A stretch of 62,426 bases of DNA, filler included, from Dugesia japonica (lineage: Eukaryota), in NCBI GenBank assembly GCA_001938525.1. It is 6 parts of 6 records of this genome, joined end to end, with 100 filler letters (N's around TTAATTAATTAA, not from the genome) between each part and the next. Parts side by side here need not be neighbours in the genome. Positions count along the whole stretch, not along the records: positions 20,031 to 31,010 come from MQRL01202033.1; 5 more parts are not named here. One strand, given 5' to 3'. Shown in pieces: positions 1,607-58,156 of the stretch. Made by a program: the position numbers and the translations under genes. Within the stretch, counting starts at the first letter, position 1, and every line of letters begins with the position of its first letter. The notes under the pieces were generated by a model. That model worked only from the letters and a program-made list of their open reading frames with translations. It was not told the origin of the DNA and made no database searches.

Positions 1607-2442
1607 TTATTGAGCCTTGGCTCGAATTGCGGCTCTTTTCGTTGTAAGAGCTTTGTAACCTGCTGATTGTTGATCAACACTGTAACGTGATCCACATGCT
1701 TTACAATCAAGAAACAATAATCGATTATCTTTTTCGAGATTAGTAGTACTAGAATGGCATGTTTTGCATAGTACGTAGCTCCCTAAATTAATTTAATAAA
1801 AAATTAGAAAAAATCAACTAAAATTAAATTACTGCAATAATTTTTTAAAACACTTTCAATTTGTTTATTTAGAAATCTTCCTCTCAGAAGTAATGAATTA
1901 TTTTGATCCACACTGCTGGTAGTACCCAATTCATTTTCTAAAAATTGTTTCAAATTAGTGGAATCTCGATTAATGCATTTGCAAATTATTGAAAAATTCA
2001 CAAAAGATGTTTTCTTGCTTCCAACTTTTGCTAATGATGGTGGAACCATTTTCAGTTTTCTTGAGCTCTCATCCATTAATTTGGGATTACTTGCGTAAAG
2101 TTTATCAAATACACGCCTTAAATACTTTTGTAGGAAATAAATTTATATATTTTAGGTAAAATAATTTTACTTCCTCATAAATGTGTTCGTCGATTACTTC
2201 GTCTTTAATAGCTGATTGATCATCGTATATTATACACTCCCTGATAAAAGCATTTAACCTTTTTTTTCTCAATCCATCAAAAACTAAGGGATGATAAAAG
2301 TTTTTATCAATGTCATGATCTGCAATATCATTTTTCTTTTCAACTTCAAATTTAGTCTTCTTCTTTTTCTTTGTTTTTGAAAAATCTATGTCCGCCTTTA
2401 TTAAATTTAAGAAATATCTAATTAAAATATTAATCTAACCAT
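1607..2442 (-). CDS. EIF2S2: Eukaryotic translation initiation factor 2 subunit beta; exons 2442-2440, 2395-2171, 2124-1833, 1782-1607; 231 aa
   Basis: Three GT-AG introns (44, 46, 50 bp) give an intact frame: MADIDFSKTKKKKKT...IYEEYLRRVFDKL...MVPPSLAKVGSKKTSFVNF...FLENELGTTSSVD...LRGRF...YVLCKTCHS...LFLDCKACGSR...GYKALTTKRAAIRAKAQ*. Contains the Lys box, eIF2B/eIF5 core and C2-C2 zinc finger. Confidence 0.95.
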
Positions 2443-5172: not shown

Positions 5173-6160
5173 TATTTTTTTATAATTTTTTAATATTTTT
5201 TATTATTTTTAATAATTTTTTGGTATAATTTTTAATAATGAATTTTTTTGGTATAATTTTTAATAATAAATTTTTTTGGTATCATTTTAATAAATTTTTT
5301 TGGTATAATTTTTAATACTGAATTTTTTAGGTATAATTTTTAATAATGAAATTTTTTGGTATAATTTTTAATAATTGTTTTTGGTATAATTTTTAATACT
5401 GAATTTTTTAGGTATAATTTTTAATAATGAATTTTTTTGGTATAATTTTTAATAATGAATTTNNNNNNNNNNNNNNNNNNNNNNNNNNNNNNNNNNNNNN
5501 NNNNNNNNNNNNNNNNNNNNNNNNNNNNNNNNNNNNNNNNNNNNNNNNNNNNNNNNNNNNNNNNNNNNNNNNNNNNNNNNNNNNNNNNNNNNNNNNNNNN
5601 NNNNNNNNNNNNNNNNNNNNNNNNNNNNNNNNNNNNNNNNNNNNNNNNNNNNNNNNNNNNNNNNNNNNNNNNNNNNNNNNNNNNNNNNNNNNNNNNNNNN
5701 NNNNNNNNNNNNNNNNNNNNNNNNNNNNNNNNNNNNNNNNNNNNNNNNNNNNNNNNNNNNNNNNNNNNNNNNNNNNNNNNNNNNNNNNNNNNNNNNNNNN
5801 NNNNNNNNNNNNNNNNNNNNNNNNNNNNNNNNNNNNNNNNNNNNNNNNNNNNNNNNNNNNNNNNNNNNNNNNNNNNNNNNNNNNNNNNNNNNNNNNNNNN
5901 NNNNNNNNNNNNNNNNNNNNNNNNNNNNNNNNNNNNNNNNNNNAATTTTTAATAATAAATTTTTTTGGTATCATTTTAATAAATTTTTTTGGTATAATTT
6001 TTAATACTGAATTTTTTGGTATAATTTTTAATACTGAATTTTTTTGGTATAATTTTTAATACTGAATTTTCTTGGTATAATTTTTAATAATGAATTTTTT
6101 TGGTATAATTTTTAATACTGAATTTTTTTGGTATAATTTTTAATAATGAATTTTTTGTTA
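5173..6160. repeat. Minisatellite, unit about 27-30 bp (TTTTTTGGTATAATTTTTAATAATGAA), collapsed across an N gap
   Basis: More than 15 visible units on both sides of the 5463-5943 gap. Confidence 0.9.
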
Positions 6161-6289
6161 TAAATAATAATAACGCTAAAATATAATATTTGAGTGGCTG
6201 CCAGCTTAGTAACAAGTGATCAACTGCTTTACATAAAGATAGTCATCTAGTATGTTTATGTCGAACCACTTCACGAAATTGTGATTCGT

Positions 6290-6475
6290 AAAAATAATAA
6301 CATTTTTCAAATTTTCTCGTGTTTTGGCTNNNNNNNNNNNNNNNNNNNNNNCTTTCAATATAACGTTTTCAATGTCGAAAGACAATAATTTCAAAGCATT
6401 TTTATCATAATTATGAATTATAATATTATTGCAATAAGCTGCAATAATGGTTTTATTTTCTTCCTTCACTACAAG
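6290..6475 (-). pseudogene. hAT transposase fragment, inverted copy of 7255-7440
   Basis: VVKEENKTIIAAYCNN..NALKLLSFDIENVILK..AKTRENLK is nearly identical to the plus-strand copy. Confidence 0.75.
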
Positions 6476-6931: not shown

Positions 6932-7444
6932 TTGATTCTGAAATCGCTAAAACTTTCAATTGAATTTGTGATAGAAGATTTGAAAAATATCGTAGCATTT
7001 TCTATTTCTACCGACGCGTCAAATAAAGGTAATCGTAAGCTATTTCTTGTAGCCATTCAATTTTATTCTCGACTGAATGGTTTGAGTTTTAAAATATTGG
7101 ATTTCTATGAAGATGCTTTCGAAGATTCAAGATCGATTAAAAATCAACTATGTCGAGTATTAAATGATTATTGATTAATTTGGAACAATATAACTGCATA
7201 TGGAACTGATTATGCTAGCGTGAATTACGAAGTAAACAATTCGGTTGTTCAAAGATTAGTGAATGAAGAAAATAAAGCCATTATTGCAGCTTATTGCAAT
7301 AATCATATAATTGATAATTGTGCTAAAAATGCTTTGAAATTATTGTCCTTCGATATTGAAAACGTTATATTGAAAGTGTTTACTGAGTTTTCTAATTCAG
7401 CCAAAAGACGAGAAAATTTGAAAGAATGTTATTATTTTTACTAA
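6932..7444 (+). pseudogene. hAT transposase catalytic-domain remnant
   Basis: SISTDASN (first D), AYGTDYASVN (second D) and CxxH (CNNH); one in-frame stop at 7172-7174. Confidence 0.75.
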
Positions 7445-8269
7445 TCAGAATTATCTAAATTGGCCTAAAAATTCGTTCTGAAATTTTATCAATTGTCCAA
7501 CTTTTGATTTTAGTAATAGAGTTGTTGATCTTCCTCTGATTGTTAAAATATATGCAGGATATGGGCCAACACCAAAATTTTAACAAATTGAAGTCCCAAA
7601 ATCTGCTTAATTTAGTTAAATAACGGAAAAATACTCGGTAGTACTTACTGTTTTCAAAATTTAAGTATTCAATATTAAATATTATTAAACTCGCTCGTCA
7701 CCGGATGGTATTTTTATTTCAAATAAATTTTAGAGTATTTTGGATGTTTTTATCAAAAAGAAAACTAAAGAGAAAACAAATTTGTAAATCTAAAGACATA
7801 TAATAAGTATTTTAAAATGCGCAATAAAGAACATCCGATCAAATTTTAAGTTAAATTCATTAATTATTTCCATTATTAATAATTTTGTTAAATCAAATTT
7901 ATTTTAAAAATTATTAATTTACTTTAATTAATATCATATTTTTATATTTTAATCATTATGTATTCATAACTATTTTTTAAATTTAGTATTTTTAATAATT
8001 TTAAATTGTTTATGAAAATTATTTAAAATGTTCATTAATTTTAATTAAATAATTATATAAATAATTATTTTAAATATTTGTAAAAATAATTTAACAATTT
8101 ATCCTTATCAATGCTATAACTACATTATAATTTTACTTATGGAAAATCCAATTTATTTCATTTAATTAAATTTGCAAATTAGTGAAAGTAGTATTTAATT
8201 ATTAATGCACTACTTTATTTATTTTCATCTAGACATATAAGATAATTCTTACATATAATAAATATTCTA

Positions 8270-14043: not shown

Positions 14044-15891
14044 TAAGAAAAAATCCAACCCTATGATCACCTTTATCCCACCGCATTAGATGAGGCCTTC
14101 AGTAAACTACATCAATTTTCATAAATATAAAGAGTTTAGATTTCTCGAGAAAACTTCCCGGGTAACAATACTGCTCGTTAAACATTAATCGACGCAATTC
14201 GATTATTTCTGATAGACAGATCATTGCAATTCTCTCAGTTGTTCTTTATTGAACCTTAATAACAGCATCTTGGCATTCACTGGTGGATTCGCTTTCCTCC
14301 GATCACTCTCATCGAACACGAATCAAAGAATTTCAGTTTTGTTTTGTGGATTTGCTTCTCTCCAATTATTCTCATTACCTCCATTAAAGTATCTCGGTAC
14401 CTCAGTCATCTCATACAAAGGGAGCACGATTCATCCCAGTCGGGGCACTCAACATCATTGGATTTTATATAATAAAATTTAAAAATTATGGCATTTGAAG
14501 ATGTACATATTTAAAATTTACTTTCGGGGTTTGTGTAGATAGCCTTGGATCGTTTCCACAATATTTTTGCTTGCTCCGATATAGGGTAATTCAATTAACT
14601 ATTTATTATCTTAACCAAGTTGAAGTAGGAAAAACTTTATTCAAATTTAATTTTCGCAAAAATAATAAAAATTAAGCAGATACAAAAGTGTTGTTTTCTC
14701 TTCGGGTAGCTGGTTTTAATTGAGAATGTTGAGACGACAAAACCGGCTCCCGATTAGCCAACTAATGATACATAACTTTGTGGGAATCCGATTTCCCGAT
14801 TGGTGAAGTTGGTGTGCATTCCTCTCTTCCTAATTTTTAACAATTTTGGTGCACACCAAATTTTTGGACTAAACTTTATTTTTCAGTCACCTCGCGTGAC
14901 CTCTGAATCCTTTCAGTTATCTCCATGCGACTTCCTTGTCTGGTTTAAGGTGAATCACGGATGCTGTTATTAAATTTGAACTTAATTCACCCTAACCAGA
15001 CAATGAATGGACCAAATTATATCTCTAATTAAGAGATAATTAAATAATATTAAACGCTGAAAAACGTTATTATAGTAATGAAATTGGGTCGCAGAGACCC
15101 TTTTAATAACTTATTGTATATTATTTTTATTATTTAATTTTTATTGTCTTTCTTTGCATCTACTTTTCATTTTTTACCACCGAAATTGGGTCTTCTACGC
15201 CCGATTTTCATTTTCTCGATAGTTTCAAAATCCGTCATAATGATTATAATAATAATAATTACATAATAATANNNNNNNNNNNNNNNNNNNNNNNNNNNNN
15301 NNNNNTGATAATATTTTCGGGTCCAGCTCATCAATTTTGTGTCTACTCTTCATTATTTTACACATTTTACTATTCTTTATTCCTTCGACAAAATTTGTGT
15401 TCTAGCCAAACAATTATAATTAAAATTATTATTCTTATTATTGTNNNNNNNNNNNNNNNNNNNNNNNNNNNNNNNNNNNNNNNNNNNNNNNNNNNNNNNN
15501 NNNNNNNNNNNNNNNNNNNNNNNNNNNNNNNNNNNNNNNNNNNNNNNNNNNNNNNNNNNNNNNNNNNNNNNNNNNNNNNNNNNNNNNNNNNNNNNNNNNN
15601 NNNNNNNNNNNNCTATAGTTAATTGAATTATTTTACCAATCCCTCTGATTTTTTTATTACTCGAATAATTTCTTAAATCGTGAATGTCTTCATATTTGAT
15701 TGAAATATCATTTAATCAATTCAAAATTCCTCAATTATACTAAAGTGTAAATTTCAGGAAGCATTGCATTAAATAAAATTATTATAAGCATAATTCATGA
15801 AAAGAGGACCACTAGAAATCAATATCAAATCCTTCAATTTACGAAAATTTCAGTATAAAACTAACTGTAAATTCACAACATTTAATAAATA

Positions 15892-17415
15892 ATGCATATC
15901 TTTTTATTGACAGTTTTACTGGTAATATATCAGTTAAATGAAATACAAACAATTGTGATGACAAACCAAATCAATGACGTTTTGAAATCCACCGTCAATA
16001 ACATTTACCAAAATAAAGATGTGAATAACATTGACAACTATAGAAATAATAATTCCAGCCTGAATAGTAATTCCGAAAATTTCAATTCCACAAACAATAA
16101 TAATTTCAAAAGTTCCAATTCAACAAACAATATTAATTCCAGAATGGTCAATTCAACAGACAATAATTATTCCAAAAATATAAATTCAACAGATAATCTT
16201 AATTCTAAAATAGTCAATCCAATTGACAATAATAATTCCAAAAGTGTAAATTTAACAGACAATATTAATTCCAAAATAGTCAATTCAAGAAGCAATATTG
16301 ATTTCAAAAGTTCCAATTCAACAGATAATCTTAATTCTAAAATAGTTAATTCAATTGATAATAATAATTCCAAAAGTTTAAATTTAACCAACAATATTAA
16401 TTCCAAAATTTACAATTCAACAGATAATATTAATTCCATAATGTTCAATTCAACAGACAATATATATTCCAAAAATATAAATTCAACAGGTAATAATAAT
16501 TCTAAAATAGTCAATTCAATTGAAAATAATAATTCAAAAAGTGTAAATTTAACAAACAATATTGATTCCAAAAGTTCTAATACAACAGATAATATTAAAT
16601 CTAAAATAGTCAATCCAATTGACAATAATAATTCCAAAAGTGTAAATTTAACAAACAATAATTATTCCAAAATAGTCAATTCAACAGATAATATTAATTC
16701 TAAAAAAGTCAATTCAATTGACAATAATAATTCCAAAAGTTCCAATTCAACAAACAATATTAATTCCAAAATTTACAATTCGACAGATAATATTAATTCC
16801 AGAATGGTCAATTCAACAGACAAGAATTATTCCAAAAATATAAATTCAACAGATAATCTTAATTCTAAAATAGTTAATTCAATTGATAATAATAATTCCA
16901 AAAGTGTAAATTTAACAAACAATATTGATTCCAAAAGTTCTAATACAACAGATAATATTAATTCTAATTCCAAAAATCCTTATTCCATGGACAATAATAA
17001 TACTAAAAACTTAAATTCTAAAGTCAAAGTTAATTGCACAAATTTCAATTTCAAAGACAATAAAACTTCTATTTCAAAACACGACGATAATTCTAAAAAT
17101 TTGAATTCGAAACACAAAAATAATTTCTTAAATAGCACTTCTAAGGATAAAGATAATTCCAAAGACAAAAATACCTCAAAAATCCTTAATTCTATCAACA
17201 ATATTATGACTAAAAATATCAAGTCTTTAAGCAATTATAATTCCAAAAATCTTAAATCCAAAGATAAAAAGAATTCCAAAAACCTAAATTCCAAGGGCAT
17301 TAATAATACTAAAATTTTCAAGTCTATAGTTAAAAATAGGTGTTTCAATTTCAAACACGACAATAATTACAAGTTCCTGTATTTGGCAATCAAATTGAAA
17401 TTAAACCAAAAATAA
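15892..17415 (+). CDS. Secreted Asn/Ser-rich tandem-repeat (mucin-like) glycoprotein, 507 aa, intronless
   Basis: Hydrophobic signal peptide (MHIFLLTVLLVIYQL); roughly 27 copies of an 11-aa unit (NSKIVNSTDNI-like) with many NxS/T sequons; basic C-terminus; TATAAAA about 37 nt upstream and AATAAA at the stop. The frame stays open for 1.5 kb in very AT-rich DNA. Confidence 0.75.
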   Translation: MHIFLLTVLLVIYQLNEIQTIVMTNQINDVLKSTVNNIYQNKDVNNIDNYRNNNSSLNSNSENFNSTNNNNFKSSNSTNNINSRMVNSTDNNYSKNINSTDNLNSKIVNPIDNNNSKSVNLTDNINSKIVNSRSNIDFKSSNSTDNLNSKIVNSIDNNNSKSLNLTNNINSKIYNSTDNINSIMFNSTDNIYSKNINSTGNNNSKIVNSIENNNSKSVNLTNNIDSKSSNTTDNIKSKIVNPIDNNNSKSVNLTNNNYSKIVNSTDNINSKKVNSIDNNNSKSSNSTNNINSKIYNSTDNINSRMVNSTDKNYSKNINSTDNLNSKIVNSIDNNNSKSVNLTNNIDSKSSNTTDNINSNSKNPYSMDNNNTKNLNSKVKVNCTNFNFKDNKTSISKHDDNSKNLNSKHKNNFLNSTSKDKDNSKDKNTSKILNSINNIMTKNIKSLSNYNSKNLKSKDKKNSKNLNSKGINNTKIFKSIVKNRCFNFKHDNNYKFLYLAIKLKLNQK

Positions 17416-20030: not shown

Positions 20031-20639
20031 ATATATATATATATATATTTATAAACTATATAGTCGATCTATTTAAAAAAATCAAAGATTTACTTTTACA
20101 AAATATGTAATTCAATACTAGATTTCTTTACAAAACTTTATTTTATACACGTCAAGATTTTTAACATTTTTGTTGTGGATTTCAGAAGGTCCAAACAATT
20201 TTCGGTTTTAAAAGAAAAGGTGATCAACTAAAATTTTGATCACTATTTATACAATTACGACATGTATGATTTTAATACAAAATTTTACAAGATAAATAAA
20301 TTTACATAAATATTTCCGTTGGTTACATAAAATATCATAAAAATTCCATTATTACAGATAAATTATATATAAAAATTTTCCATTAGTTATTTATTAATCG
20401 ATAATTTCAGTAATTTACAAATTATATATAATTGTTTGTTGATTATTCATGACTTCAATAAATAATTGAGTTGATTGATTGCTTGAATTGATTGATTGAC
20501 TGAGTTGGTTGATTGGGATGCTGGACGTTCTGATTGTTATTTGCTCATACTTGTTTTGTATATTACTTGTGTATATTGTGTATGTATGTGAATGTCAAAT
20601 AGCTTTAACTTTGTTAATTGATTTTAATTTTTTTCAACA
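20031..20639 (-). repeat. LTR-like repeat in minus orientation (inverted copy of 30244-31010), truncated at an (AT)n tract at the contig end
   Basis: 20031-20370 is the exact reverse complement of 30671-31010. 20467-20636 matches 30246-30416 with few substitutions. The minus strand begins TGTTGA at 20639. Confidence 0.85.
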
Positions 20640-20641
20640 TA

Positions 20642-20734
20642 ATGAAGAAAATATTATACAAACAGCATGGTGGCTTCCTCGCTGCATTACTACCTATTGC
20701 ATTGGCTGCATTAGGTCTAACAAATTTTGCATAG
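20642..20734 (+). pseudogene. C-terminal part of a Polinton/adintovirus pX-like virion peptide
   Basis: MKKILYKQHGGFLAALLPIALAALGLTNFA*: basic stretch, then a GG|F adenain-type cleavage site and a hydrophobic tail. Lies directly upstream of a Polinton integrase. Confidence 0.6.
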
Positions 20735-20821
20735 GCATTATATATATAATTTGATATAAGCAATGGAAAATTTAGAATAATTAACCTATAATTAATCTAC
20801 AATTTGCATCAAATTGTTGTA

Positions 20822-21618
20822 ATGGACAAAACCGAGATAATGTGGACAGATCCAAAAAATCCAGCAGGATTCAAAGGAGTGGGAAAGTTATGGAAAGCAA
20901 CACAAAATTCGAAAGAACAAGGCACAAAAGTGACTATTTGGTCAACTAGCGTATAGTCGAAACAAACCAATGTTCAAAAGATCTCCAACAAGAGCGTATA
21001 AAACATTTGGTATTGACGATTTATGACAAATAGATTTGATGGAAATGATACCTTATTAAAAAATTAATAGAGGTTACAAGTACATTTTAACATGTATCGA
21101 CGTGTTTAGCTGATTTTAATCGAATATTGAAAGATGCATTGAAAAAGTACTTTGTGCATACTGGAAATAAAACATGGATACATGTGTTACCAAAAATAAT
21201 TCATAGCTGTAATCATACAAGTCATAATGGATTAAATGGAGCCAGACCTGTAGATGTATCATCTGAAAATTCAAAGAAATTATGGTTATTGAAACAAAAA
21301 CCGAATGTAATTAAAAAACCAAAATATAAAGTTGGTGATCATTCACCATTCATCAAGAATTTTGATAGTAATTGGAGTGATGAAGTGTTTCAAATATCGA
21401 AAATCAATACCAAACAGAATCNNNNNATGTATGTGATTAAAGACTATGAAGATAATATCATTCAAGGAAAATTCTATGAACAAGAATTACAAGTAATTCC
21501 ACCACCAATAGTATTTAGAATAGAAAGGATTATAAAATCAAAGAAAACAAAAGATGATAAACAATTATATGTAAAATGGCATGGATACGAAAAACTTACT
21601 TGGATATCAACATCTTAA
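20822..21618 (+). pseudogene. Polinton/Maverick retroviral-like integrase with C-terminal chromodomain, internally deleted
   Basis: WTDPKNPAGFKGVGKLWK; DDL*QIDLMEM..NRGYKYILTCIDVFS joined directly to NRILKDAL..YF..TGNKTWIHVLPKII; KPKYKVGD; NWSDEVFQI; IQGKFYEQELQ; chromodomain FRIERIIK..LYVKWHGY..TWI. Confidence 0.85.
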
Positions 21619-21644
21619 ATAGTAAATTCAACAAAGAAGAAAAT

Positions 21645-21710
21645 ATGAGTAAAACGAATAATTTCTATACACTATTACCGAGTAATAGTTGTCCACTTAT
21701 TTATCCGGAG
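21645..21710 (+). pseudogene. N-terminal 22 codons of a Polinton minor capsid (penton) protein, fused in frame to the glycoprotein
   Basis: MSKTNNFYTLLPSNSCPLIYPE resembles the FYxTLPSNS..xxxPxN start of Polinton pentons and follows the integrase. Confidence 0.55.
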
Positions 21711-23365
21711 AGTATGCAGAGAGAATGTATTGTTAAATATTCGGAGGAAGTGTTCTATTGTGATAGTTCTCAGGTAGTACCGTTAGTACCAAGTTGGTCA
21801 CCAGAAGCAGTAAATATATCAGCTGAAGATATCGATAAAACGTTTGAAAACAAAGAAATAATAGTACGCGAAAAAGTTAAATTAGAAGCGAGAATTGGAG
21901 TGAAAGTAAGACAATCAAAAGATATAGTCGGATGGGAATCCGGAGGAGGATGGTGCAAATGAGGTAAATACTATCTATGGGGGAAAAAAGGAGTGATTTA
22001 GTAGTAAGACGGATGTATTATGTAGAATTGAGGAAATTTAAAGCTTCATTCGATTCAGTTACCGGAAAAATGATGACTCATCCTTTTTGCAATTTACAAA
22101 ATTTTAATTGTGATACCGGAAAATCTATGTTAACATACAAAGTAAACCCACATGAATGTGCCCTGACAAAACTGAAAACGTTAAAAATGTATTCCATCTC
22201 GGGAAAAAGATTCGCTGAGAACTTGGCAAAAGAAACAAGAGATCAAAAGAGAGAATTAACAGTAATCCAAGAGAAAGCAACTCCTACAATATTTGTAACG
22301 AATTCTTCTAAAGATCTTATGAGATTTATTGACAAAGGAGAAACAATCAAATGTGCAGTAGCAGTAAAGAAAACCAACTATAACGGATTATATATATCTA
22401 CTGAACTTATTAAAGCCTCTAAAGATCAAGTAGATAAATTAGACATCAAACTAGCTTCATATTTTAATAATAAACTTGATTTTGCATACCATAATTTAAT
22501 ATATCAAATGGAAAAATTATATGATGAAACAATATCAAGAGATTGTAAAGTGAATAGAGAATTACTGCGCACAAAAATGGCATTAGCTTCCACTAATCTA
22601 GATTTAATGACTCCACTATTGTTCGAGGAAACGGGAACTTTTAGGAGAATCATGGGTGAAGCATTATTAACCTTTAAATGTAAAATAGCAAAGGTTACGT
22701 TACCAGATCACCCAAAATGTACAAATGAATTGCCGGTAATACATAACAATAAAAAGGTTTTCTTATTACCTATGACACGAATTTTAACTGATGAAAATTA
22801 TAAACCAAAGGTAATCAACAAGTGTAGTAATGTTATAGATCCACTATACAAAATAAATGATGATATTTGGATCACAGCCTCAGATCGTAAAACAGCGAAA
22901 AAGCCTGCTATATTAGAAATGACGGAACTACAGAGAAAAATGATATTTGATAGACAAGACAATATGGAAAATGCTGGTATATATACTCAAGAAGATATAG
23001 AGAAAGCCAGAAAACATGTCTTGTTTCCTATAGAAAGAGAAAAGATAATATCAATTATGATTGACAGAATTAATAAAGGAAGCCAAGGAGATGATATTAA
23101 TTTTGAGTCGCTATTGCATGTAAATCACTACAAAAGAGCCATGCAAGGTTTTATTGATAAATTTTTAGGCAAAGCACAAGCAATCGGTGATATATTTTCG
23201 TTTTTTCTAATAATATACTATGTATCAATTTTATTAAAATTAGCCTGCCATCAATTAATATCATTAAAACAATTACATTCAGTATTTGGCGCTACACGAA
23301 AATTAGCAGCATGCATATGTACATTTATTGCAAAACATTTAATCATGCAAAAANNACCACGATAA
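21711..23365 (+). pseudogene. env: Class III (herpesvirus gB / chuvirus-like) envelope glycoprotein, N-terminally truncated
   Basis: Cys pattern and motifs recalled from chuvirus-type glycoproteins: YFNNKLDF, central helix LYDETISRDCKVNRELL, GEALLTFKC, KCTNELPV..LPMTRIL, CSNVIDPLYKI..W, GIYTQEDIE..HVLFPIER; C-terminal hydrophobic/TM segments. One stop and a frameshift near 21960. Confidence 0.8.
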
Positions 23366-23435
23366 AATCAGCAAACTAGAAAGACAAAATCAAACATACA
23401 CAATTGATCTATCGAACAGAGATGAGAATACATAA

Positions 23436-24257
23436 TTGAACAATTACAATAATAAACCTTATCAATCAGAAACCGATAAACTTAACGAATTAAAATCAAA
23501 CCTTGAAAATGAAAAAGTAATAAGATATCCTGCACCACAAAAATCACACAAGATATATGTAATAAATGGAGACACTCCTAGACCTACCATAATAATATCA
23601 ATACATGGATATAACATACCTTCATTAATAGACACTGAAGAAGCATGCTCAATAATTAAAGAGGTATTTCTCAACAAAAAACCACAAGAGAATCTCGATA
23701 CGAGACTGTCAGAGGAATTAAAATCATTCACGGGTCACAAATTACCTATAAAAGGGATAATAGACTGCAATATTACTATAGAAAATGAAAATATACAACA
23801 ATCATTCCGAGTTGTAGATCAAGGGGTACAAGATTGCATTTTGGGAATGGATTTATTATCAAAATTGACAGGATACGTTATAGATTTACAAAATAATAAA
23901 TTATCAAAATCAGCGCCCGTAAATAATGAAAAAGCAAATAACGATTTATATCTGAAGTCCAACGCAAAAATAGAATATTCATGCAAATGTATAATGCCTG
24001 TAAAATTAGGGTTCCGTAGTGAAAATATTTATTTTTTCGAACCAAATAATCAATTAGAGAAAAAATTCAATATATCAATAGTACCCAGATGTTTTGTACC
24101 AAATGAGGGAAACATGCCCATAAGAATTGCTAATTATAATAATCAAGACGTTAATCTTCTTCCAGGTATGAAATTAGGAAACCTTTATGTAAAAAACGAG
24201 GATTGTGAAATAAACAAAATTACAATTAATGATAGTAAAAGAAACACTAATCTATGA
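23436..24257 (+). pseudogene. Retroviral-type aspartic protease plus dUTPase-like linker domain
   Basis: SLIDTEEACSII (DTG decayed to DTE), LKSFTGHKLPIKG, DCILGMDLL; then IRIANYNNQDVNLLPGMKLG. Confidence 0.8.
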
Positions 24258-25760
24258 CAAAATCATACCTAAGTAAACAAAGTTTTACGATAAAACCAAA
24301 ATAACCAATAGTAATCTAACAGCGCGCCAACGACAAAAATTACAAGCAGTAATAGATAAATTTGAAGATGTTTAAGCAAAACATGAATTTCATATGGATG
24401 AAGCAGATTTTATACAACATGCTATTGACACAGGTAATGCTAAACCAATTAAACAAAGGCCATATGTGGTACCATATAAATTGAGAGAAGAAGTTGAGCG
24501 ACAAAGAAAAGAATTAAAAGACAATGGAATTATAGTACAAAGCTTCTCTCCATGGGCATCACCAGTAGTACCAGTAAAGAAAAAAGATGGAGAAATCAGA
24601 ATGTGTGTAGACTATAGAAAATTAAATGAAGTCACCAAGAAAGATACTCACCCTTTCCCGAAAATACAGGAGCAATTCAATAAATTAAGTAAAGCATTAT
24701 GGTTTGCAATATTCGATGTCAACATAGGCTTTTATGGTCTGAAAGTATTGTTACAAGATAGATAAAAAACTGCATTCGTAACAAAAGACGGTTTATACGA
24801 ATTTACAAGAATGCCATTTGGTTTAATGAACGCAACAGCTTCTTTCCAGAGATTAATGAACACAGTATTGATAGATGTGGAACATGTAATAGTGTATATG
24901 GACGATATTCTGATCGCATCAGAATCATTTGAGCAACATTTGATAAACAAAGAAAACATGATGTCCAGATTACAAAAGGCAATTATAAAACTGAAACCAA
25001 CAAAATGTAAATGGGCGGAGGAACAGGTATTATTTTTAGGTCATATTGTCTCATCAAAGGTTTTGCAACCAAATCCAGAGAAGAAAGACGCAGTAAAAAA
25101 ATTTCCAATACCAAAAGCAGTACAACAGCTACAAAGTTATAACGGATTAGTTGGTTACTATCGTCGATTTATAAAAGATTTTGCCAAAATATCTGCTCCA
25201 TTAGTAGAATTAACAAAAGGATTAAAAACAAAAGGAGAAAGTAAGAATGTGATGATCACCGAAAAAATTGATGAAAGCTCATCAAAATTATAAAAATTAT
25301 GGAGAAATAATCAACAGAAAGCCTTCGAAATGTTAAAAGAAAAATTAATAACCGCATCGTTATTGAGATATCCAGATTTTGGCAAACCATTTATAATCAT
25401 GACAGATGCAAGTGGATATGTCGTTGGAGCAGTTCTCGGACAAGAGGAAGAGAAAAATAAAGATTATGTAATCGCATACGCAAGTAAAATGTTAAAAGGA
25501 GCAGAAACTAGATACTCGACAATTGAAAAGGAGTGCTATGCAATAATATACGGATTGAAACAATTTCGACCATTCATTTATGGAACAGAAGTCCCTATAT
25601 GAACGGATAATAACCCACTTGAAGGCATATGGAAAAAGAAGGATACATCCAGCTGGATACTAAAATGAGCTATGAAAATCCAAGATATGAATATAAAAAT
25701 TAAATATAAACCTGGAAGAGCTAACATAATGCTGATGCATTATCGAGAATTCCTAATATA
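24258..25760 (+). pseudogene. pol: Ty3/gypsy reverse transcriptase and RNase H
   Basis: SPWASPVVPV, RMCVDYRKLN, MPFGLMNA, YMDDIL, FLGHIV, GYYRRFI; RH TDASGYVVGAVL, EKECYAI, ADALSR. Several stops and frameshifts. Confidence 0.95.
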
Positions 25761-25775
25761 AAAGAAGTAGAAACA

Positions 25776-27050
25776 ATGGAACTAATGGCTATAATAACCG
25801 AAGGTATAAACGATAAANCTTTCTCAGATGAACAAAGAAAGGATAAAATCATCAAATCAATACGAAATAATCTCAATGAAAATCCAAAATATAAAATATA
25901 CAAGGATCTACTTGTGTATGATAATATGGAAAACTATTTATGGGTTGTCCCTGATCCATTAAAGCAGAAGTTACTTCTCCAATATCACGATGGTGCTCTT
26001 GGTGGGCATTTGTCAAGTAGAAAAAAGCATCTAGAATTTTACAAAAATATTATTGGCAAAACTTAAAGTAAGATGTAAAACAGTGGTGTAAAACTTGTTC
26101 AATATGCGCAACCAGAAAGAACACTGGAACCAAAACAAAAGTACCACTTCATCCAATGCCAGTACCAAGTTCACCAATTCAAATATGTGCTATGGATTTC
26201 TTAAGCAAACTACTCACTACAATAAAAGGCAATAAACATATTTGGGTATTTAGCCATTACTTTACAAAATGGGCTGAAGCATTCCCCACCAAAGATGAAT
26301 TAGCCGAAACAGTTGCAAAACTATTAGTGGAAAAGATTGTTTTTAAATACGGAGCACCCAAAAAATTACTATCAGACAGAGATAAAAATTTCTTAAGTAA
26401 AAAAGTTAAGAGTCAACGAAATGTTTAATATTCAAAAAATAAATACTTCAGCGTATCACCCACAGACAGACGGTCTTGTGGAAAGATTTAATAGTATACT
26501 ATGCAACAGACTATCAGTATTTGTCAACAAAAATCAAAATGATTGGGATTTATTTATCAAACCAGCACTATTTGCTCACAATACAACAGAAAACGAAGCA
26601 ACCGGATATTCACCATTCTACTTAATGTACCTGAGAGAAAATCACAATTCGGTAGACATTACATTTGAGCCTATTGTATCACAATACATGGACAATCCGG
26701 ATTATGTCACGAAAATGCAGGAAGGATTACAGAAAGTGTATAAACAAGCTGGGTTGAGAGTAAAATTCAAACAAGAACAATACAAAGATTATTATGACAA
26801 AAATGCGAAACCACGCCAATTTAAAGTTGGAGATAAAGTGCGAATAAAGACTCCAAATTCTAAAAAGGTTCAACAAAAAAACTGGCCAGACCATTCAAAG
26901 GACCTTTTGAAGTAGTGAAAGTAATGGATACAAACCTACAAGTGATAAAGAACAAAAATGATGATCTTTCAGGAGTTGCAGTCAACAAGTGCAAATTAGC
27001 AGAAACAGAACCAATAACTTCAAAATCACACAAATATAATCTCAGATCAC
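25776..27050 (+). pseudogene. pol: Ty3/gypsy integrase
   Basis: HHCC (YHDGALGGHL..CKTCSIC), AMDF, LLSD, AYHPQTDGLVERFN, GPF motif and terminal YNLRS. Confidence 0.93.
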
Positions 27051-27061
27051 AATCACAAAAT

Positions 27062-28856
27062 TCATTACTGATCATGTCACTAATATTATTATCGATTATA
27101 ACAAGTTGTTCAGCAGATTTCACGTATTTATCACCTAGAAAAAACTCTTGGCCTACGGTAGAAATAGGTATATATTCACATAAATTTACATTCGAAATCC
27201 CTTCACATAAGACTTTCTATGGACCTACATTATCAGGAGAAAATAGAATTATTACAAAATAAAACCCTAATACTAACAGTTATATTGACAGACAGTGTTA
27301 ATGACATAAAAATAGAAATTCAAAATGTCCCAGATGTATTAGGAGTTGAGTTTATATATTACGACAGATTACCAATACCCTTTCTCGCATTTACAAAAAT
27401 AAGAGGTCACTCTAGAATAGACAATACCTCTTTGTTAAATAATATATCATTCTTGAAATATTCCATCTTGGCACCAGAAGATATAGACTCCATGTCAATG
27501 TTTGTAGATATTAAAACCTTACCAGATCACTACATGCTCACAGAAATAATCGAGATCAAAATTCAGAACTTCAGAGGGGAAACATTATTGAACAAAAGAG
27601 TATGCCCCAGAGAGCGAATCAAACACAACTATAAAGACACAATTGGATACGACGAGAAATTAATCCTCGGTAAGGAAGATGCATACCCAATTATCATACA
27701 AACCGGACATATGCTATATGGAAAAATATTGATTGGCTATGACTTGGGAAAGAAATTGGCCAGTCTTCATATGGATCAAAGACATATTATTGAATATAGA
27801 GATCTTGATGAAGAAAAATGGCATAAGAAACTAGTATCGAAACCTAATACAGCCAAACACCGGATAAGTACAATTTTCGAAGCAATATTGAAACCCATAA
27901 AATATTAACCTCGAATAAGGGATTTAATTTGGTCAATGAACCATACAATAACATTCACTACAAACAACAGAATTGAATGGATACGACAGGCGTATATCTA
28001 CCTTAAAGAAACGAATCAATGGGACGACACTATAAAACCAACTAAGGACTACAATTTAGATCCAAAAATGGATGTCTTAGAACCTATAACTTCTATACCA
28101 CCACGAGAAGAAATATTCCCTATGGCAGTCTATTGGCCCATAATATTAAAAGAAATTGACAAAAGTAAAATAGATATTGTCAAATCTGGGGAATCAACTC
28201 AAGCTAATATAAACCATCCAATTATAAATAAAAAGACTAAGCGATTAAATTATAATAGCGTTGATCTTGATGACGAATCTGAAACTGAAGACAATGTGTC
28301 ATCACCAAAAATATGGAAAGAGAATACTGAACCCAACACGCAGATAGAAGAAGCGGCACGCAATATCATACAAATAGATAGTGATTCTGATTTAGATGAT
28401 AGTGATGATGAATTAAATGAAAATAAAGATTCAAATTCAGACAATAATTATGAGAACCAAAGCGAAACTGAAGGACCAATATACAGAGAACAAACAAAAG
28501 AGCCACTACAGGAATTAACAACGGAGGAAGTCAGATTCTGTAAACAATATGTACCATATTATACAGATGATGAATCCAGTGAGGATGAACTTGGATTTGA
28601 CCCAGATATCGAAATACTAGATGTTAGAGAATCATCGATTGATATGTCAGACCTTGTGTACATTAACAAAAAAATGGATACCACTGTCACTATGAAAGAC
28701 ATGGCCAATGATGAGGCATATGTGACATTTGGTACTAAGAAAATAAAAATAAAACGAGTCAATGGACAATTTAAGTTTATAGTAGAAAATACCATGTATG
28801 ATAGCATGGCCTTAGAGGAAGAGGGACAAGAACTCTCGATATCAATTACAAAATGA
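27062..28856 (+). pseudogene. Post-integrase extension: signal peptide, unknown domain, DEDDh (REX4/ISG20-like) exonuclease-like domain, acidic tail
   Basis: LLIMSLILLSIITSCSA|DF is in frame with the IN end. From 27498: MFVDIK..IIEIKIQNFRGETLLNKRVCPRERI..GYDEKLI..LYGKILIGYDL..YRDL. ORFs 27219 and 27936 share a frame across one TAA. D/E-rich region at about 28260-28620. Confidence 0.6.
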
Positions 28857-28962
28857 AATTATAAAATACATAGTTGTATATTTGTGTATATATGTGTGTG
28901 TGTGTAAATGTATACAACTTTCATATCCTTTACTAGCTTCATTAATTATTTATTTTTAGAAA

Positions 28963-30200
28963 ATGGATCCCGAATCAACAGCTAGGAAAATTCATCTACA
29001 CAATAACTGTAAAATAATTTTACATGAAAAACACCGCGCCCTGAAATACCCATTAAATTACGGTTAAGATGACGTAGCCAAAATTATTTATTACCTATCC
29101 GAAGACGCTGAATGCCCATTTGTTACGAATACCCAGAACTGCCACGAATTTTGGAATGTGGCCATTATTTCTGTCTTTATTATATATTAAAAGTCTTTCT
29201 TCTTTTCAACTTACGTCTAGTCCCCTGCCCAATCTGTCGTTCCTGAAAAATAGATGCTTTTCATCCTAAACGAGTTTCTTTCCTAAACATGTCACCCTTT
29301 AAAGTTGGACAAAAACTCAATATGTTGTTAACCTTCAAAGACCCCTTCAACAACTGCACAAGAATTGCTCATCGCCTACCCTTATATTATCAAGAGGATA
29401 TTCCTGAATTTAGCGACTTAGTTGGTAAATAAAATAATGTTACCATTCAAAGAGATGTCATTTCCATCAGCCAGATACAGAATGACCTCTGTACAGCCAG
29501 AGTGACCAATTAAACGAAAAGAGACAAAGACAACATGCAGCTCCACTTAAATAGTGAATTAAGAAGATTCAATAACCTAGTCAAAATTCAAGATCGATTT
29601 GAGTTCGTCAGGAAATTCCTTAACAGTAAAAACGTTTCACAATTCAACCTGTTTCATCACCGAAATATATTGTCACCTCGGTTATACTAACAAACTGGTC
29701 GGTACCATAACCTTTTTATCAATAAGGAACAACAGGAAAAAATACTCCAATTACCAATATTAAAATTGCCCTATGAACTCATAGTAGAAGTAAAGTCCAT
29801 AGAAACAGATATTGTAAAAACTTGTCATGCAGTTTTTTACACTGGACAAAGAATTACCTCTATTACTATCGATATCATTAGTTCTAAGGTACTTGGAGGT
29901 CTACCTAAATACGTGCCCTTTTTCAAACATTATGGAGACATTTTAAAGAAAGAAAAAAGAGAAAAACAAGAATTGAAAAGAATAGCGGACAACTGTAAAA
30001 ATTTGATAGGATAGAACCAAAGATTTACAACCTCACCAGACAAAGACAACCACTTGAAATATTTTCAAAACCTACATTCCCATACCCTACATTACCAAAT
30101 ATTGAGGAAGAATTTAACCCGTGTATTTTCAACGAACCCTGTGCGAATACAATTCCTTCTGGCTTACATGATATGGAATGCTCATTCTTAACCTTGTTTC
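28963..30200 (+). pseudogene. RNF10/MAG2-like C3HC4 RING E3 ubiquitin ligase carried by the retroelement
   Basis: With a 1-nt deletion at about 29117: HLHNNCKIIL..EDAECPICYEYPELPRILECGHYFCLYYILK..VPCPICRS..KVGQKLNMLL..LY*QTGRYHNLFIN..LPYELIVEVKSIE..YGDILKKEKREKQE. Collinear with RNF10 blocks outside the RING. Confidence 0.7.
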
Positions 30201-30208
30201 TTAAACAA

Positions 30209-30239
30209 GCTGCGGGTGCATCTTTTTTCGAAGGGGGAA
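30209..30239 (+). promoter_or_regulatory. Polypurine tract with preceding GC hairpin and T-run
   Basis: GCTGCGGGTGCATC-TTTTTT-CGAAGGGGGAA lies immediately before the LTR-like repeat. Confidence 0.75.
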
Positions 30240-30243
30240 CATT

Positions 30244-31010
30244 TTTTGAGGAAAATTAAAATCAATTAACAAAATTAAAGCTATTTGACATTCACATACA
30301 TACACAATATACACAAGTAATATAAAAAACAAGTATGAGNAAATAACAATCAGAACGTCCAGCATCCCAATCAACCAACTCAATCAATCAATCAATTCAA
30401 GCAATCAATCAACTCAAAATCAATAAACTTTATCTGATCCAATTTTACCGATTGAAGCTCTATTTGATTTGATTTGATTTTAACCAAATTGACTTTGTTA
30501 AATTGATTTATCATAAAATATGTTATTTGTAAAAAAAATTTTTTATATTATTTCATTTGTAGAATTTTATATTTAATTAAGAATATTTTATTTATAAAAT
30601 TGCATATCGCATAAACAATTATTTATTGAAGTCATGAATAATTATTTACCTAAATTATCAACAAACAATTATATATAATTTATCTGTAATAATGGAATTT
30701 TTATGATATTTTATGTAACCAACGGAAATATTTATGTAAATTTATTTATCTTGTAAAATTTTGTATTAAAATCATACATGTCGTAATTGTATAAATAGTG
30801 ATCAAAATTTTAGTTGATCACCTTTTCTTTTAAAACCGAAAATTGTTTGGACCTTCTGAAATCCACAACAAAAATGTTAAAAATCTTGACGTGTATAAAA
30901 TAAAGTTTTGTAAAGAAATCTAGTATTGAATTACATATTTTGTAAAAGTAAATCTTTGATTTTTTTAAATAGATCGACTATATAGTTTATAAATATATAT
31001 ATATATATAT
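30244..31010 (+). repeat. 3' LTR (partial; the contig breaks at an (AT)n tract)
   Basis: Follows the PPT. Start TTTTGAGG aligns with TGTTGAAA of the second copy. Contains (TCAA)n and a GTGATCAA..TTGATCAC hairpin. Confidence 0.75.
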
Positions 31011-52337: not shown

Positions 52338-54450
52338 CAGAGGTCGCCAAAGTAGTCTATATAGACCCCTCAGGGGTCTATTTAATAAAAGTAGGGATCG
52401 ATCTGAGCCAAGAGGTTGAATGGGGGTCGAAGAAAACCCATTTTTAATACGCAATTCAAACATACCTAACTGCATATGTAAAATTTGTGAATGCTTTTAT
52501 AATTGACTTAATATCAGTTTCTTGTGAGAAAATAAATTAATAAACGTATATTTATTCGAGTGAATAAAGTATTTACATACCAGCGCGCAGCGGTGCCAAC
52601 TCGGCACTTCTGTCTTATGAGTCATACACATATGCGCGTTGCTCCAAATGTCACGAGCGTTGATGTAAGAAGGTAAGCATTAAGAATATTGATTAGTATA
52701 GTATACAAACTTATTTTTTACTTATTTATAGAACCCTAATTAAAAAATGGCAGCTTCAGTTTCTAAAAAGAATTTCGGTAATATTCATTGGATTATTTGA
52801 AATTTGGATTTATTTGTTCATCGATAAATGAAACAGTTCTTATATGTCTTCTATGCGAAACAAAACATTTGGAAACGAGTATATGAAACCGTCAAAAATG
52901 AAAGATCATCTTAAAATGAAAGATCATCATCATCATTTTTATCATCACTCAGATAAAAATAAATATAGAACTTGAATTTTTCAAAAAACTTAAAGAACTA
53001 TAAAACGTTTTATGAAGCAGTCTACTGAAGGAGGATTAATAGATTCGTACAAGATTTCGCTTACGGTAGCAAAGAAAGGAAAACCACACACTCTCGCTGA
53101 AGAAATTGTTATACCTGCAATTTAAGACTACATTGAGGATGTAATGACAAAAGACTCCGTTAATGTTTTCAAGTCCTTGCCATTAAGCGCAAATTCTGTT
53201 AAACGGCGTATTGACGAAATCGCAGAAGAAATATAAAATACAGTAGTTTCCGAGCTAAAAAATTGAAAGTTCTCTATTCAACTTGATGAATCTGTTTTTG
53301 GCGTTTCAACTATTTTTATGGTGTACGTGAGATATTTCAGTAAAATAAAAAGACAAGTCATTGATGAACTTTTATTTGCTAAATATCTTGAAACTGATAG
53401 AAAAGGAGTAACCATTTTTAGATGTTTACAATAATATTTAAATAAATATGATATTCCGCTTCAAAATATAATAGCAGTAGCCACAGATGGCGCATCTGCT
53501 ATGGTAGGGCGTTACCGAGGTTTTGCTACATTTCTCAAAATAAAATTGCCCGGTATACGTACTATTTATTGTGTGTTGCATAGAAACAACTTAGTGGCAA
53601 AATATCTGAGTCCAGAGTTACATAAAGCTTGTATTAAGTGTATCAATCAAATTAAAGCCCAACCTCTTAAATCAAGATTGTTTTCCAAACTCTGTGAGGA
53701 AAACGACAAGGTATTTAACCAATTACTTCTGCACACCGAAGTTATATGGTTGTCTAGACGTGTATGCTTGCCATTGCTTGTTAAGTTATTTGACTTCACG
53801 ATAGAATTTCTCAGTGAAATAAATCCTGTTCTGTGTGATGAACTCCAAAACAATAAAAACCATATTTTATATTTAGCGGAATTATTTGAAAAATTAAATG
53901 CCGTCCAAACGAAGCTGTAAGAAAAAGATGTAACAATAATTCAAGCTTGGACAATACTGTTAGGATTCCAAGTAAAATTAAATTTATTTAGATCTTTATT
54001 GCTATGTAAGGATTATCAGTATTTTTCAAACCTGCGACATTTAGAAATAAAAGAAGAAGACTTAAATATATATACAAGTCATCTTGAAAAATTAAGAGAC
54101 CATTTTAAACTGCGATTTGTTGATTTGGAAAACATTTACATCCCTGAATGGATTATTGCATCATTTTCCGCTCAAATTGAAAACCTAGATACCAACCTGC
54201 AAGATGCGTTTGCTGATTTAATATAATGCAAAAATCTGTAAAACTTTTCGAAATACCTGAGCCATTTATGCTGGCATTTCCAAGTTCCTATACGGTTAAA
54301 GCCGGTTTCAGTCACGTAAATTCAATCTTAAATAAGTTCAGAAATAAATTAAATCTGGAGTTTCGAGGAGATTTAAGATTAAAATTGACAAATTTTGAAC
54401 CCAATATAGTGAACTTTGCAAAGAAACACCAGCCACACCCATCTCATTGA
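52338..54450 (+). mobile_element. hAT Buster/Charlie-type transposon, decayed; transposase about 52747-54450
   Basis: TIR CAGAGGTCGCCAAAGT; ATAGACCCC..GGGGTCTAT palindrome; KPHTLAEE, LPLSANSVKRRI, SIQLDES, ATDGASAMVG, CVLH, LLHTEVIWLSR, FPSSY, RGDLRLKL and HPSH*. Right TIR not seen. Confidence 0.9.
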
Positions 54451-56974: not shown

Positions 56975-58156
56975 TCATAAACAATTTGAAGTATTATTCT
57001 GTAAGTTGCCTTGAATGAATTCTTGTAAGGAGATATCATATAATAATGCATTTCTTTGTAAAACTTCAACACAAGGTCCTAATAAACGCTCAAAACTAGA
57101 TCTCTCCAATATCCCAATCACAGATTTTTCCAAACAGACGACAGTTGCAGCTCGTGGTCGATTTGTCATCAATGAAAGCTCGCCAAAATATTGACCCTTT
57201 TCTAAAATAACTATTTGTTTTCTTGTATTTCCACTATCCACATATACTCCAACTTTCCCTCTTTCAATGAAATACATATGCTTTCCAACATCTCCTTGAT
57301 GGATAATGATAGAATCTTTTTCATATGTTTTCATATGAATAGCATCTGCAATATTTATCTTTTCATCATTAGTTAATGAATCAAAAAGAGGTACTGATGA
57401 TATAAAATTGACATATGTTAATCTTTTTTCATGTGCCTTTAGTATCACAATACTTTTAAACGTTTTCCTATTCATATACCAAAGGATTCCAGCAGTTCTT
57501 GCAATAACTGTTGCTGATCTTGGTGAATTATATAATAAAGAAAGTTCACCGAAAGATCCTTGATTGTTATACGTATTGATATGTTCTAAAGCATTGTATT
57601 TATTTTTAATGTAAACATCAAATATTCCCGATTGAATTACATAGAAATGATCACCAGGATCTCCTTGTTGAATAATAATATCATCAGCTTTCACTATTAA
57701 GATATTCATAGCGATAATTACATCATGAATTTCGTCATCAGCAAGTGTTTTGAAAATCGTTATTTTTGAAATAAGCCGTTTTAAGGTCTCTATTTCTGAT
57801 GACGTTTTAACATTTGTTTGGACAATTTCTCCGGAATTGTATATCTGGAAATCGTACGGATTCCAGCTTTCTGAAGAGATAGCGAATCGGCGTCTATTTG
57901 TTTTTGGCTCAAATTCAATTTCTTCTGAACTATCAATGCTCGATCTATTTTTCGAAATTGAAGTGTCCAGTTTTCTATCAAAAGCCACTGATTTTGAATT
58001 ATCTGTATTTCGATTTTCAAATAAATTATGGAAATAATTTGCCGAAAATTCTAATAGATTTGTCGGTTTGTTTTTTAATGCGTCCAATGTAAAATCTATT
58101 AATAATTCTCTAATTTCTAAATTTAATGGAAGATTTTTACAGTCCACAAATGACAT
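56975..58156 (-). CDS. PRKAR2: cAMP-dependent protein kinase regulatory subunit (RII-like), intronless, 393 aa from ATG 58156
   Basis: RIIa-type D/D domain (ELLIDFTLDALKNKPTNLLEFSANYF), inhibitor site RRFAISSE, two CNB domains (QGDPGDHFYVI..FGELSLLYNSPRSATV; YFGELSLMTNRPRAATV) and FERLLGPC. Confidence 0.92.
   Translation of the reverse strand: MSFVDCKNLPLNLEIRELLIDFTLDALKNKPTNLLEFSANYFHNLFENRNTDNSKSVAFDRKLDTSISKNRSSIDSSEEIEFEPKTNRRRFAISSESWNPYDFQIYNSGEIVQTNVKTSSEIETLKRLISKITIFKTLADDEIHDVIIAMNILIVKADDIIIQQGDPGDHFYVIQSGIFDVYIKNKYNALEHINTYNNQGSFGELSLLYNSPRSATVIARTAGILWYMNRKTFKSIVILKAHEKRLTYVNFISSVPLFDSLTNDEKINIADAIHMKTYEKDSIIIHQGDVGKHMYFIERGKVGVYVDSGNTRKQIVILEKGQYFGELSLMTNRPRAATVVCLEKSVIGILERSSFERLLGPCVEVLQRNALLYDISLQEFIQGNLQNNTSNCL

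Follow-up and report, generated by a model that had tools for sequence, protein, structure and literature searches.

An inverted-repeat contig of Dugesia japonica that joins a Polinton fragment to a gB-env Ty3/gypsy element: most likely a dead nested composite

Ty3/gypsy retroelements with an envelope gene placed ahead of pol are described in flatworms, nematodes and bryozoans, where they follow a GAG-ENV-POL order (PMC13524379), and the same order is described for the Burro elements of planarians (PMC6431247). Here we analyse an 11-kb contig of the planarian Dugesia japonica (assembly GCA_001938525.1, record MQRL01202033.1) in which a decayed element of this kind is joined to a piece of a Polinton, the whole being enclosed by long inverted repeats. 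The contig occupies positions 20031-31010 of the window, by which we mean the whole stretch of 62,426 nt that was analysed. Among the elements tabulated in PMC13524379, the closest flatworm GAG-ENV-POL errantivirus with a gB-type env is Smed_errantivirus_3, which shares with the contig the position of env before pol, the gB-type env and the Ty3/gypsy pol. By eye, one stretch of its env agrees with that of the contig in 18 of 19 residues, and a looser likeness continues through domains I-II, whereas the env of the other five Schmidtea rows and of the nematode and bryozoan rows shown there is clearly more distant. Unlike the flatworm errantiviruses, the contig copy is decayed, lacks gag and the start of env, and has one of its presumed long terminal repeats (LTRs) inverted.

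Burro, or GYPSM1, the giant gypsy of dugesiid planarians, is described as having an in-frame env between gag and pol, a dUTPase-like region between protease (PR) and reverse transcriptase (RT), RING and other accessory open reading frames (ORFs), long LTRs and decayed family fragments (PMC6431247), all of them points of likeness to the contig. Its very large ORF1 carries BIR, MATH and BCL2 motifs; the visible part of the contig is much smaller and no BIR, MATH or ankyrin domain was seen in it, the comparison being one of architecture with the description in the review. Polintons (Mavericks, adintoviruses) share with the contig a pX-domain gene, a chromodomain integrase and a minor capsid gene in native order (PMC8097293; PMC8502044). 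The piece found here is just 1.07 kb long, with the integrase core deleted and with no protein-primed PolB (pPolB), ATPase, protease or major capsid gene and no visible end motif or target-site duplication (TSD).

Associations of such elements have been described elsewhere. Nematode Mavericks carry a gB-like fusogen, MFUS-1, beside Polinton genes inside inverted repeats, as here (10.1101/2022.07.12.499685; 10.1101/2023.08.22.554363), but MFUS-1 is presented there as an intact standalone gene in complete Mavericks, whereas the contig env is of a retroelement polyprotein lineage and no longer has a signal peptide. Ngaro retrotransposons are nested in mavirus-like EMALEs, sometimes as two adjacent insertions (PMC8547959); these, however, are tyrosine-recombinase retroelements in a protist, and the EMALEs described stay intact. 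The geometry of the contig is that of the precursor proposed for Ginger1, in which terminal inverted repeats (TIRs) would arise from a 3' LTR and an opposed upstream LTR flanking an integrase (PMC2836005). Ginger1 transposons have TIRs of 40-270 bp, an integrase without RT and a 4-bp TSD (CCGG/CCGT), whereas the contig has repeats of more than 600 bp, still carries RT and env, has a broken integrase and shows no sign of mobility. In the literature, consulted mostly at the level of titles and abstract openings, neither a TIR-bounded Polinton/LTR chimera nor a planarian Polinton turned up.

The contig is most likely a dead nested composite and not a mobile unit or a new kind of element, each of its modules being a new, defective copy of a known kind. 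We consider it highly probable that the repeats are LTRs of the retroelement and that this element arrived in a Polinton already dead, whether one insertion and an inversion or two insertions and a deletion led to the present arrangement. The contig is the third of the six contigs of ~10 kb in the window and is entirely taken up by the unit, between N44-TTAATTAATTAA-N44 spacers. Its inverted end repeats enclose the 1.07-kb Polinton piece joined to env-pol, and all recognisable genes lie on the plus strand, as a first-pass annotation had stated. The features on which the argument turns are the following, L001 and L002 being Polinton contigs and P numbers related proteins.

20031-20639, minus strand: probable left LTR copy, inverted (alignment to the right copy and boundary sequence)
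20031-20372, no strand: outer block ending in (AT)9, identical to 30669-31010 and probably collapsed in assembly
20642-20734, plus strand: last 30 codons of a pX-domain gene, which is cut off at the LTR boundary (match to an L002 ORF)
20822-21630, plus strand: dead Polinton-type integrase with chromodomain (74% identical to P0152; Chromo, E 8e-5)
21645-21713, plus strand: first ~22 codons of a penton (minor-capsid)-like gene (match to the N-terminus of an L001 ORF)
21714-23365, plus strand: gB-type (class III) env (PF24664, E 1.3e-60)
23436-24257, plus strand: retropepsin protease with altered catalytic motif, then a dUTPase-like spacer (Pfam protease, E 0.002-0.003; tblastn to P0005 and P0009)
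24301-25725, plus strand: Ty3/gypsy RT and RNase H, 5 premature stops (RVT_1, RT_RNaseH_2)
25728-27052, plus strand: gypsy integrase (H2C2, DDE, GPF) with frameshifts and one stop (Pfam H2C2, rve)
30230-30239, plus strand: polypurine tract (PPT), 4 nt ahead of the repeat start
30244-31010, plus strand: probable right (3') LTR copy, starting TT where the left copy has TG, with no terminal CA, truncated at (AT)9

The first-pass annotation had reported the same repeat in inverted orientation at both contig ends, each terminating in (AT)n, and both observations were borne out. The outer 342 of 342 bases are identical (20031-20372 against 31010-30669) and end on both sides in exactly 18 nt of (AT)n. 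Inward of this block lie three indels, one of 59 bp present in the left copy only, between 12-bp direct repeats, and two of 16 bp and 201 bp present in the right copy only. Then follows an inner block of 172 bp (20466-20637 against 30417-30246) with 5 mismatches in 171 scorable bases. Divergence therefore differs between the outer (0/376) and inner (5/171) parts (Fisher p=0.003, or p=0.009 when an adjacent pair of mismatches is counted once).

These repeats appear, from their inner boundaries, to behave as LTRs and not as TIRs. Both copies end inwardly on the same base (±5 nt). On the left, the copy begins with TGTTG on the minus strand, its TG end at 20639 being read leftwards until the contig end cuts it inside the LTR, and it abuts Polinton pX coding sequence that is cut mid-frame; the start fits the TGTNR pattern given for gypsy elements (PMC2836005). 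On the right, the copy is preceded by the purine tract, which is one of just two G5 runs on the plus strand of the contig, and such a run or tract would fall within 10 nt of the boundary with a chance of ~0.2-0.4% (a post hoc figure). Because pX codons on one side and a PPT on the other meet the repeat at the same base, this position should be a real element end and not the product of two chance deletions: a single shared position is what the 5' end of an LTR would give, whereas TIRs would need two coincident deletions. The initial interpretation of the right repeat as a 3' LTR, directly behind a PPT, and of the left one as an opposed LTR whose TG end interrupts the pX gene, is thus supported. 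The two copies are inverted, not direct as in an ordinary Ty3/gypsy element. The LTR is probably longer than the visible 0.77 kb; Burro elements are given as exceeding 30 kb, with an internal part of up to 25 kb (PMC6431247).

The window has ~20-35% GC per kb and numerous small N gaps. Five of its ten contig-join ends carry a clear AT or AAT microsatellite, namely both ends of the present contig and three contig starts in AAT, and one more end has a short AT run; microsatellite termini are therefore ordinary for this assembly. The earlier suggestion that the break fell at a microsatellite within the LTR is supported. The outer 342-bp identity is probably that of one collapsed assembly node used at both ends, since it is too young for the decay inside the unit. 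The gypsy frames contain 7 stops in 1738 codons, an implied decay of 2.6% per site (95% range 1.0-5.4%). The inner LTR divergence of 2.9% (range 1.0-6.7%) fits this figure, with 3.9 stops expected (P(>=7)=0.10), while the outer identity, taken as real, predicts 1.2 stops against the 7 observed (P=0.0003). Gene conversion and trans-mobilisation are alternative readings of the outer identity, collapse being the simple one.

The retroelement can be classed by sequence similarity as a decayed gB-env Ty3/gypsy element of the planarian gag-env-pol (Burro/errantivirus) kind. Domains of gypsy type follow one another in the order PR-RT-RH-INT (RH, RNase H; INT, integrase), with the gB-type env upstream of pol. 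The env lacks its signal peptide and about the first 45 mature residues, has a stop at 21960 and a frameshift near 21980, and is 36-40% identical to its top gag-env-pol relatives. The best PDB matches of the RT are Ty3 RT (4OL8 and 7Q5B, E 5e-35), and the integrase core shares 46-52% identity with P0005 and P0009. The spacer behind the protease is putatively dUTPase-like, as judged by eye and from the description of Burro (PMC6431247). The env search gave 742 representatives at E <=0.001, 150 of which were listed and, with P0001, make up the 151 relatives considered here. When the 16 longest were scanned, a protease followed env in 11, env-PR-RT-RH-INT lay in a single ORF in four, and three had an upstream match to gag or to a knuckle. 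No match to gag was found anywhere in the contig; we read gag as lost or displaced, and the copy is a defective remnant, not an intact member of its kind. A Maverick-owned fusogen like MFUS-1 was ruled out, the closest env relatives being gag-env-pol polyproteins. In one relative, P0003, residues 9-70 gave a weak Bcl-2 match (E 1e-3) immediately upstream of env, which resembles the descriptions of Burro.

The 1.07-kb piece to the left of env reads, from homology, as an internal Polinton fragment in native order that is cut inside a gene at each end, with pX-INT-minor capsid homology and synteny to L001 and L002. The segment 20642-20734 matches residues 77-104 of a 106-aa ORF upstream of the L002 integrase (score 79, 0/5000 shuffles). 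We take this to be a pX gene, the name following PMC8502044. The pX-like peptide of the first-pass annotation is thus of the Polinton pX kind, although it is no standalone peptide but the last 30 residues of a protein of ~106 aa. The Polinton chromo-integrase reported at the same time is present with its chromodomain, but 68 residues of its catalytic core are gone: tblastn maps residues 1-95 and 164-343 of P0152 to the contig, residues 96-163 being absent, and this gap at ~21114/21115 removes the second D and the E of the DDE triad. Further damage consists of an 8-residue gap, one frameshift and 5 premature stops. The claim of two integrases in the unit fails, as this one lacks two of its three catalytic residues. 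Its stops cluster upstream of the core gap (20913-21116, 4/68 codons, against 21115-21615, 0/195; p=0.004), possibly because the gene is a mosaic of two copies.

Behind the integrase, 21645-21713 matches the N-terminus of the ORF downstream of the L001 integrase (score 59, 0/5000 shuffles); the other penton-like paralog of L001 scores 32 (184/5000 shuffles). The penton label is our assumption, made from the gene order INT-mCP-PW-MCP (mCP and MCP, minor and major capsid). The later L001 ORFs, which by their position are presumably PW and the major capsid gene, fit that order. It is the module order given for Polintons in PMC8097293. Capsid identity of the L001 penton-like ORF was not confirmed by fold, its predicted model having a pLDDT of 36 and being unusable; in the atlas the ORF fell into unnamed viral clusters only, and Pfam gave no hit for any of the six locus ORFs (0 of 6). 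No pPolB, ATPase, protease or major capsid gene of Polintons was found in the contig, all of whose ORFs are otherwise accounted for. L001 (1-4976), L002 and L003 are Polinton contigs within bacterial metagenome-assembled genome records, where they are probably eukaryotic or viral contamination, and L001 has two penton-like genes in tandem behind its integrase.

The junction between penton and env lies within ~21700-21720 and is uncertain by ~20 nt. The fusion seen at first pass is indeed in frame, but the resulting ORF lacks a signal peptide and runs for 105 codons before a stop at 21960; the match to the env profile begins at its residue 23. None of the 151 env relatives has the penton start motif. 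That the penton start might be env's own N-terminus was rejected: it gives 0.9 bits against the env profile, compared with the score of 59 for the L001 penton-like ORF. The spacing of Y-x-L-L...C-P and I-Y-x-E-S in the penton start (21660-21720) loosely resembles that of the env N-terminus which it replaces, and a short penton/env homology may have guided the junction.

The two modules are unequally decayed. With 4 stops in 263 codons (~9% decay), the Polinton integrase exceeds the gypsy frames in stop density (p=0.045, or p=0.015 with a near-terminal stop counted, 5/268), and it is 3-4 times more decayed than the gypsy element. Most likely, then, the Polinton had already died when the gypsy element arrived.

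The history that we tentatively favour, at a little under an even chance, comprises one insertion and one inversion. A gag-env-pol Ty3/gypsy provirus would have integrated, in opposite orientation, into the pX gene of the already decayed Polinton, giving an intermediate that read penton-INT-pX tail (reversed), 5' LTR, gag, env, pol, 3' LTR and pX head (reversed). One later inversion, between a point near codon 22 of penton and another near the env start, would then have turned around the Polinton fragment together with the 5' LTR, gag and the env start. The outcome would be the order inverted 5' LTR, pX tail, INT, penton start, remainder of env, pol, PPT and 3' LTR, in which the TG end of the 5' LTR still sits on its pX target site and the penton-env junction is newly created. 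Short-read assembly would subsequently have collapsed the outer parts of both long LTRs into one and halted at the internal (AT)n. Retrotransposon-associated inversions are frequent in Schmidtea, as reported for large-scale synteny breakpoints only (PMC11410931).

Several points weigh against this history, or against the identification of LTRs that underlies it. Of the 7 frame changes in the gypsy frames, some may be native or stem from assembly errors. Inversions are in general less common than deletions. At its start the right copy has TT in place of TG, and CATT just outside the boundary also matches with a one-base offset; the element end could be 4-5 nt further out, or the boundary a microhomology junction. 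The contig contains no terminal CA, primer binding site (PBS), gag or TSD, the sequence stopping at the contig ends. Lastly, the six Schmidtea elements in the table of PMC13524379 come without LTR coordinates, no direct LTRs of this very family were encountered, and the method of that study would miss long LTRs.

The first-pass annotation had preferred an independent LTR in opposite orientation that inserted into pX, and a deletion that fused penton to env. In this history a second LTR of the same family, either a solo one or one belonging to another copy as its 5' LTR, entered pX on its own, and the deletion took away the rest of the Polinton and, from the right-hand element, the 5' LTR, gag and the env start. 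The LTR core of that proposal holds, and the evidence from the repeats and from decay applies to it equally. Nested insertions of one family in opposite orientation occur (PMC5932611), and Schmidtea families reach 45-215 intact copies. The closest named family, however, has 3 intact copies, the other 51 kb of the window hold no further copy of the repeat (the one weak match being AT-rich and 44 bp long, E 2.6e-4), and the route needs two insertions of 97%-identical LTRs within deletion range as well as a deletion of several kb. We regard it as quite possible though not probable; a second insertion and a deletion are not needed, since a single inversion suffices. Both routes fit the contig equally well, and the inversion is slightly preferred because it takes two events and the other three; the weight given to each is a matter of judgement, not of computation.

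An assembly or library chimera, with the junction at 21710, that at 20640 or both absent from the genome, we consider improbable. The assembly is fragmented and N-rich, the outer 342 bp look collapsed, and the clustered stops of the Polinton integrase could betray a mosaic of copies; yet both junctions are free of N's and of repeats, the small internal gaps (21422 and 23354) are in register within genes colinear with their homologs, and the left junction falls exactly on the TG end that matches the PPT boundary.

It is very unlikely that the repeats are the TIRs of an internally deleted Polinton that swallowed the internal region of a gypsy element. Maverick ends are short microsatellites, and identity that is greatest outermost is typical of TIRs. 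The INT-penton module also points inward from the terminus, as is described for vertebrate Mavericks (PMC8097293), and the repeat length lies within the reported TIR range of 100-1500 bp (10.1101/2023.08.22.554363). Such a history would nonetheless demand that the 3' LTR of the gypsy element be lost precisely at the PPT and that the pX deletion end on the same repeat base, and there is no Polinton gene near the right repeat. None of the three reported end motifs, (AGT)2, (AG)3 and (AC)3A, is present in the left repeat, although these motifs are from vertebrates and true ends may lie off the contig; microsatellites, for their part, occur at half of the contig-join ends regardless.

More doubtful still is that the opposed LTRs, their U5 ends outward, act as TIRs and that the unit has been moved in trans by the gypsy integrase together with its Polinton fragment; were this true, it would be a natural LTR-to-TIR transition such as that proposed for Ginger1, and the perfect outer identity would be real. 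The unit cannot move on its own because it has no PBS, gag, intact integrase or polymerase. Least likely of all is the second proposal of the first-pass annotation, a genuine Polinton/retroelement chimera that is bounded by TIRs, has been mobilised and has two integrases, which would suit the perfect outer identity around decayed contents (the pattern of a trans-mobilised non-autonomous element), the co-oriented genes and the in-frame fusion (1 in 3 by chance), but which is made improbable by the lost catalytic residues of one integrase and the frameshifts of the other, by the absence of pPolB, major capsid, gag and PBS from the contig, by the unequal decay of the modules, by a fusion ORF that ends after 105 codons and recurs in 0 of 151 relatives, and by the lack of any visible Maverick end motif or TSD.

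Between the gypsy integrase and the PPT lie three further ORFs.

27065-28856, plus strand: post-integrase extension, broken; a hydrophobic signal-like segment at its start precedes an unknown domain and a stretch rich in acidic residues
28963-29246, plus strand: broken C3HC4 RING-finger ORF (zf-C3HC4, E 7e-4, below the curated cut-off)
29289-30014, plus strand: uncharacterised accessory ORF of 240 codons with 3 premature stops, between pol and the PPT

These correspond to the cargo of the earlier annotation. They are present on the plus strand as it stated, but look native to the gypsy clade and not captured from a Polinton: the possibility that they are Polinton genes was rejected, as they have no match to L001-L003, and we read them as probably native to the retroelement because RING motifs are reported in Burro. 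A hydrophobic segment behind the integrase also occurs in all three relatives with a post-integrase extension that were examined (P0005, P0009 and P0017), two of whose extensions show fibronectin-III-like motifs by eye. The extension at 27065-28856 matches no Pfam family and has no real similarity to the extensions of these three proteins. No homolog was found among proteins of 432-2000 aa, which is weak evidence as proteins near its own length were not searched, and the atlas gave a lead (0.86) to a possible DEDD-type exonuclease. The signal-peptide protein behind the integrase may be a second surface protein of the clade.

Elsewhere in the window we noted a second decayed gypsy-like remnant with a zinc knuckle and the start of an RT (60310-62366, plus strand), an intronless PKA regulatory subunit gene with RIIa and cNMP domains (56975-58156, minus strand), host gene exons with an eIF2-beta/eIF5 domain (1804-2434, minus strand), and an Asn/Ser-rich ORF of 508 codons with short tandem repeats and a hydrophobic N-terminus (15889-17415, plus strand). 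A short-period satellite spans an N gap at 5174-6173, and an inverted pair of 195 bp, 82% identical (6277-6471 and 7257-7452), may represent the ends of a small DNA element. A broken ORF at 53435-54226 (plus strand), without a Pfam match, is one that we take to resemble a hAT transposase. Rfam gave no matches.

As read here, the contig is most likely yet another decayed gypsy copy of the planarian gag-env-pol kind, lodged in a dead Polinton, and as such it matters little. It illustrates how a short-read contig whose LTR ends have collapsed can pass for a TIR element. The signal-peptide protein behind the integrase, with hydrophobic post-integrase extensions in three relatives as well, provides a side lead. 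Should the unit prove to be multicopy and flanked by TSDs, the hypothesis that the TIRs of Ginger1 originated from two opposed LTRs would become directly testable.

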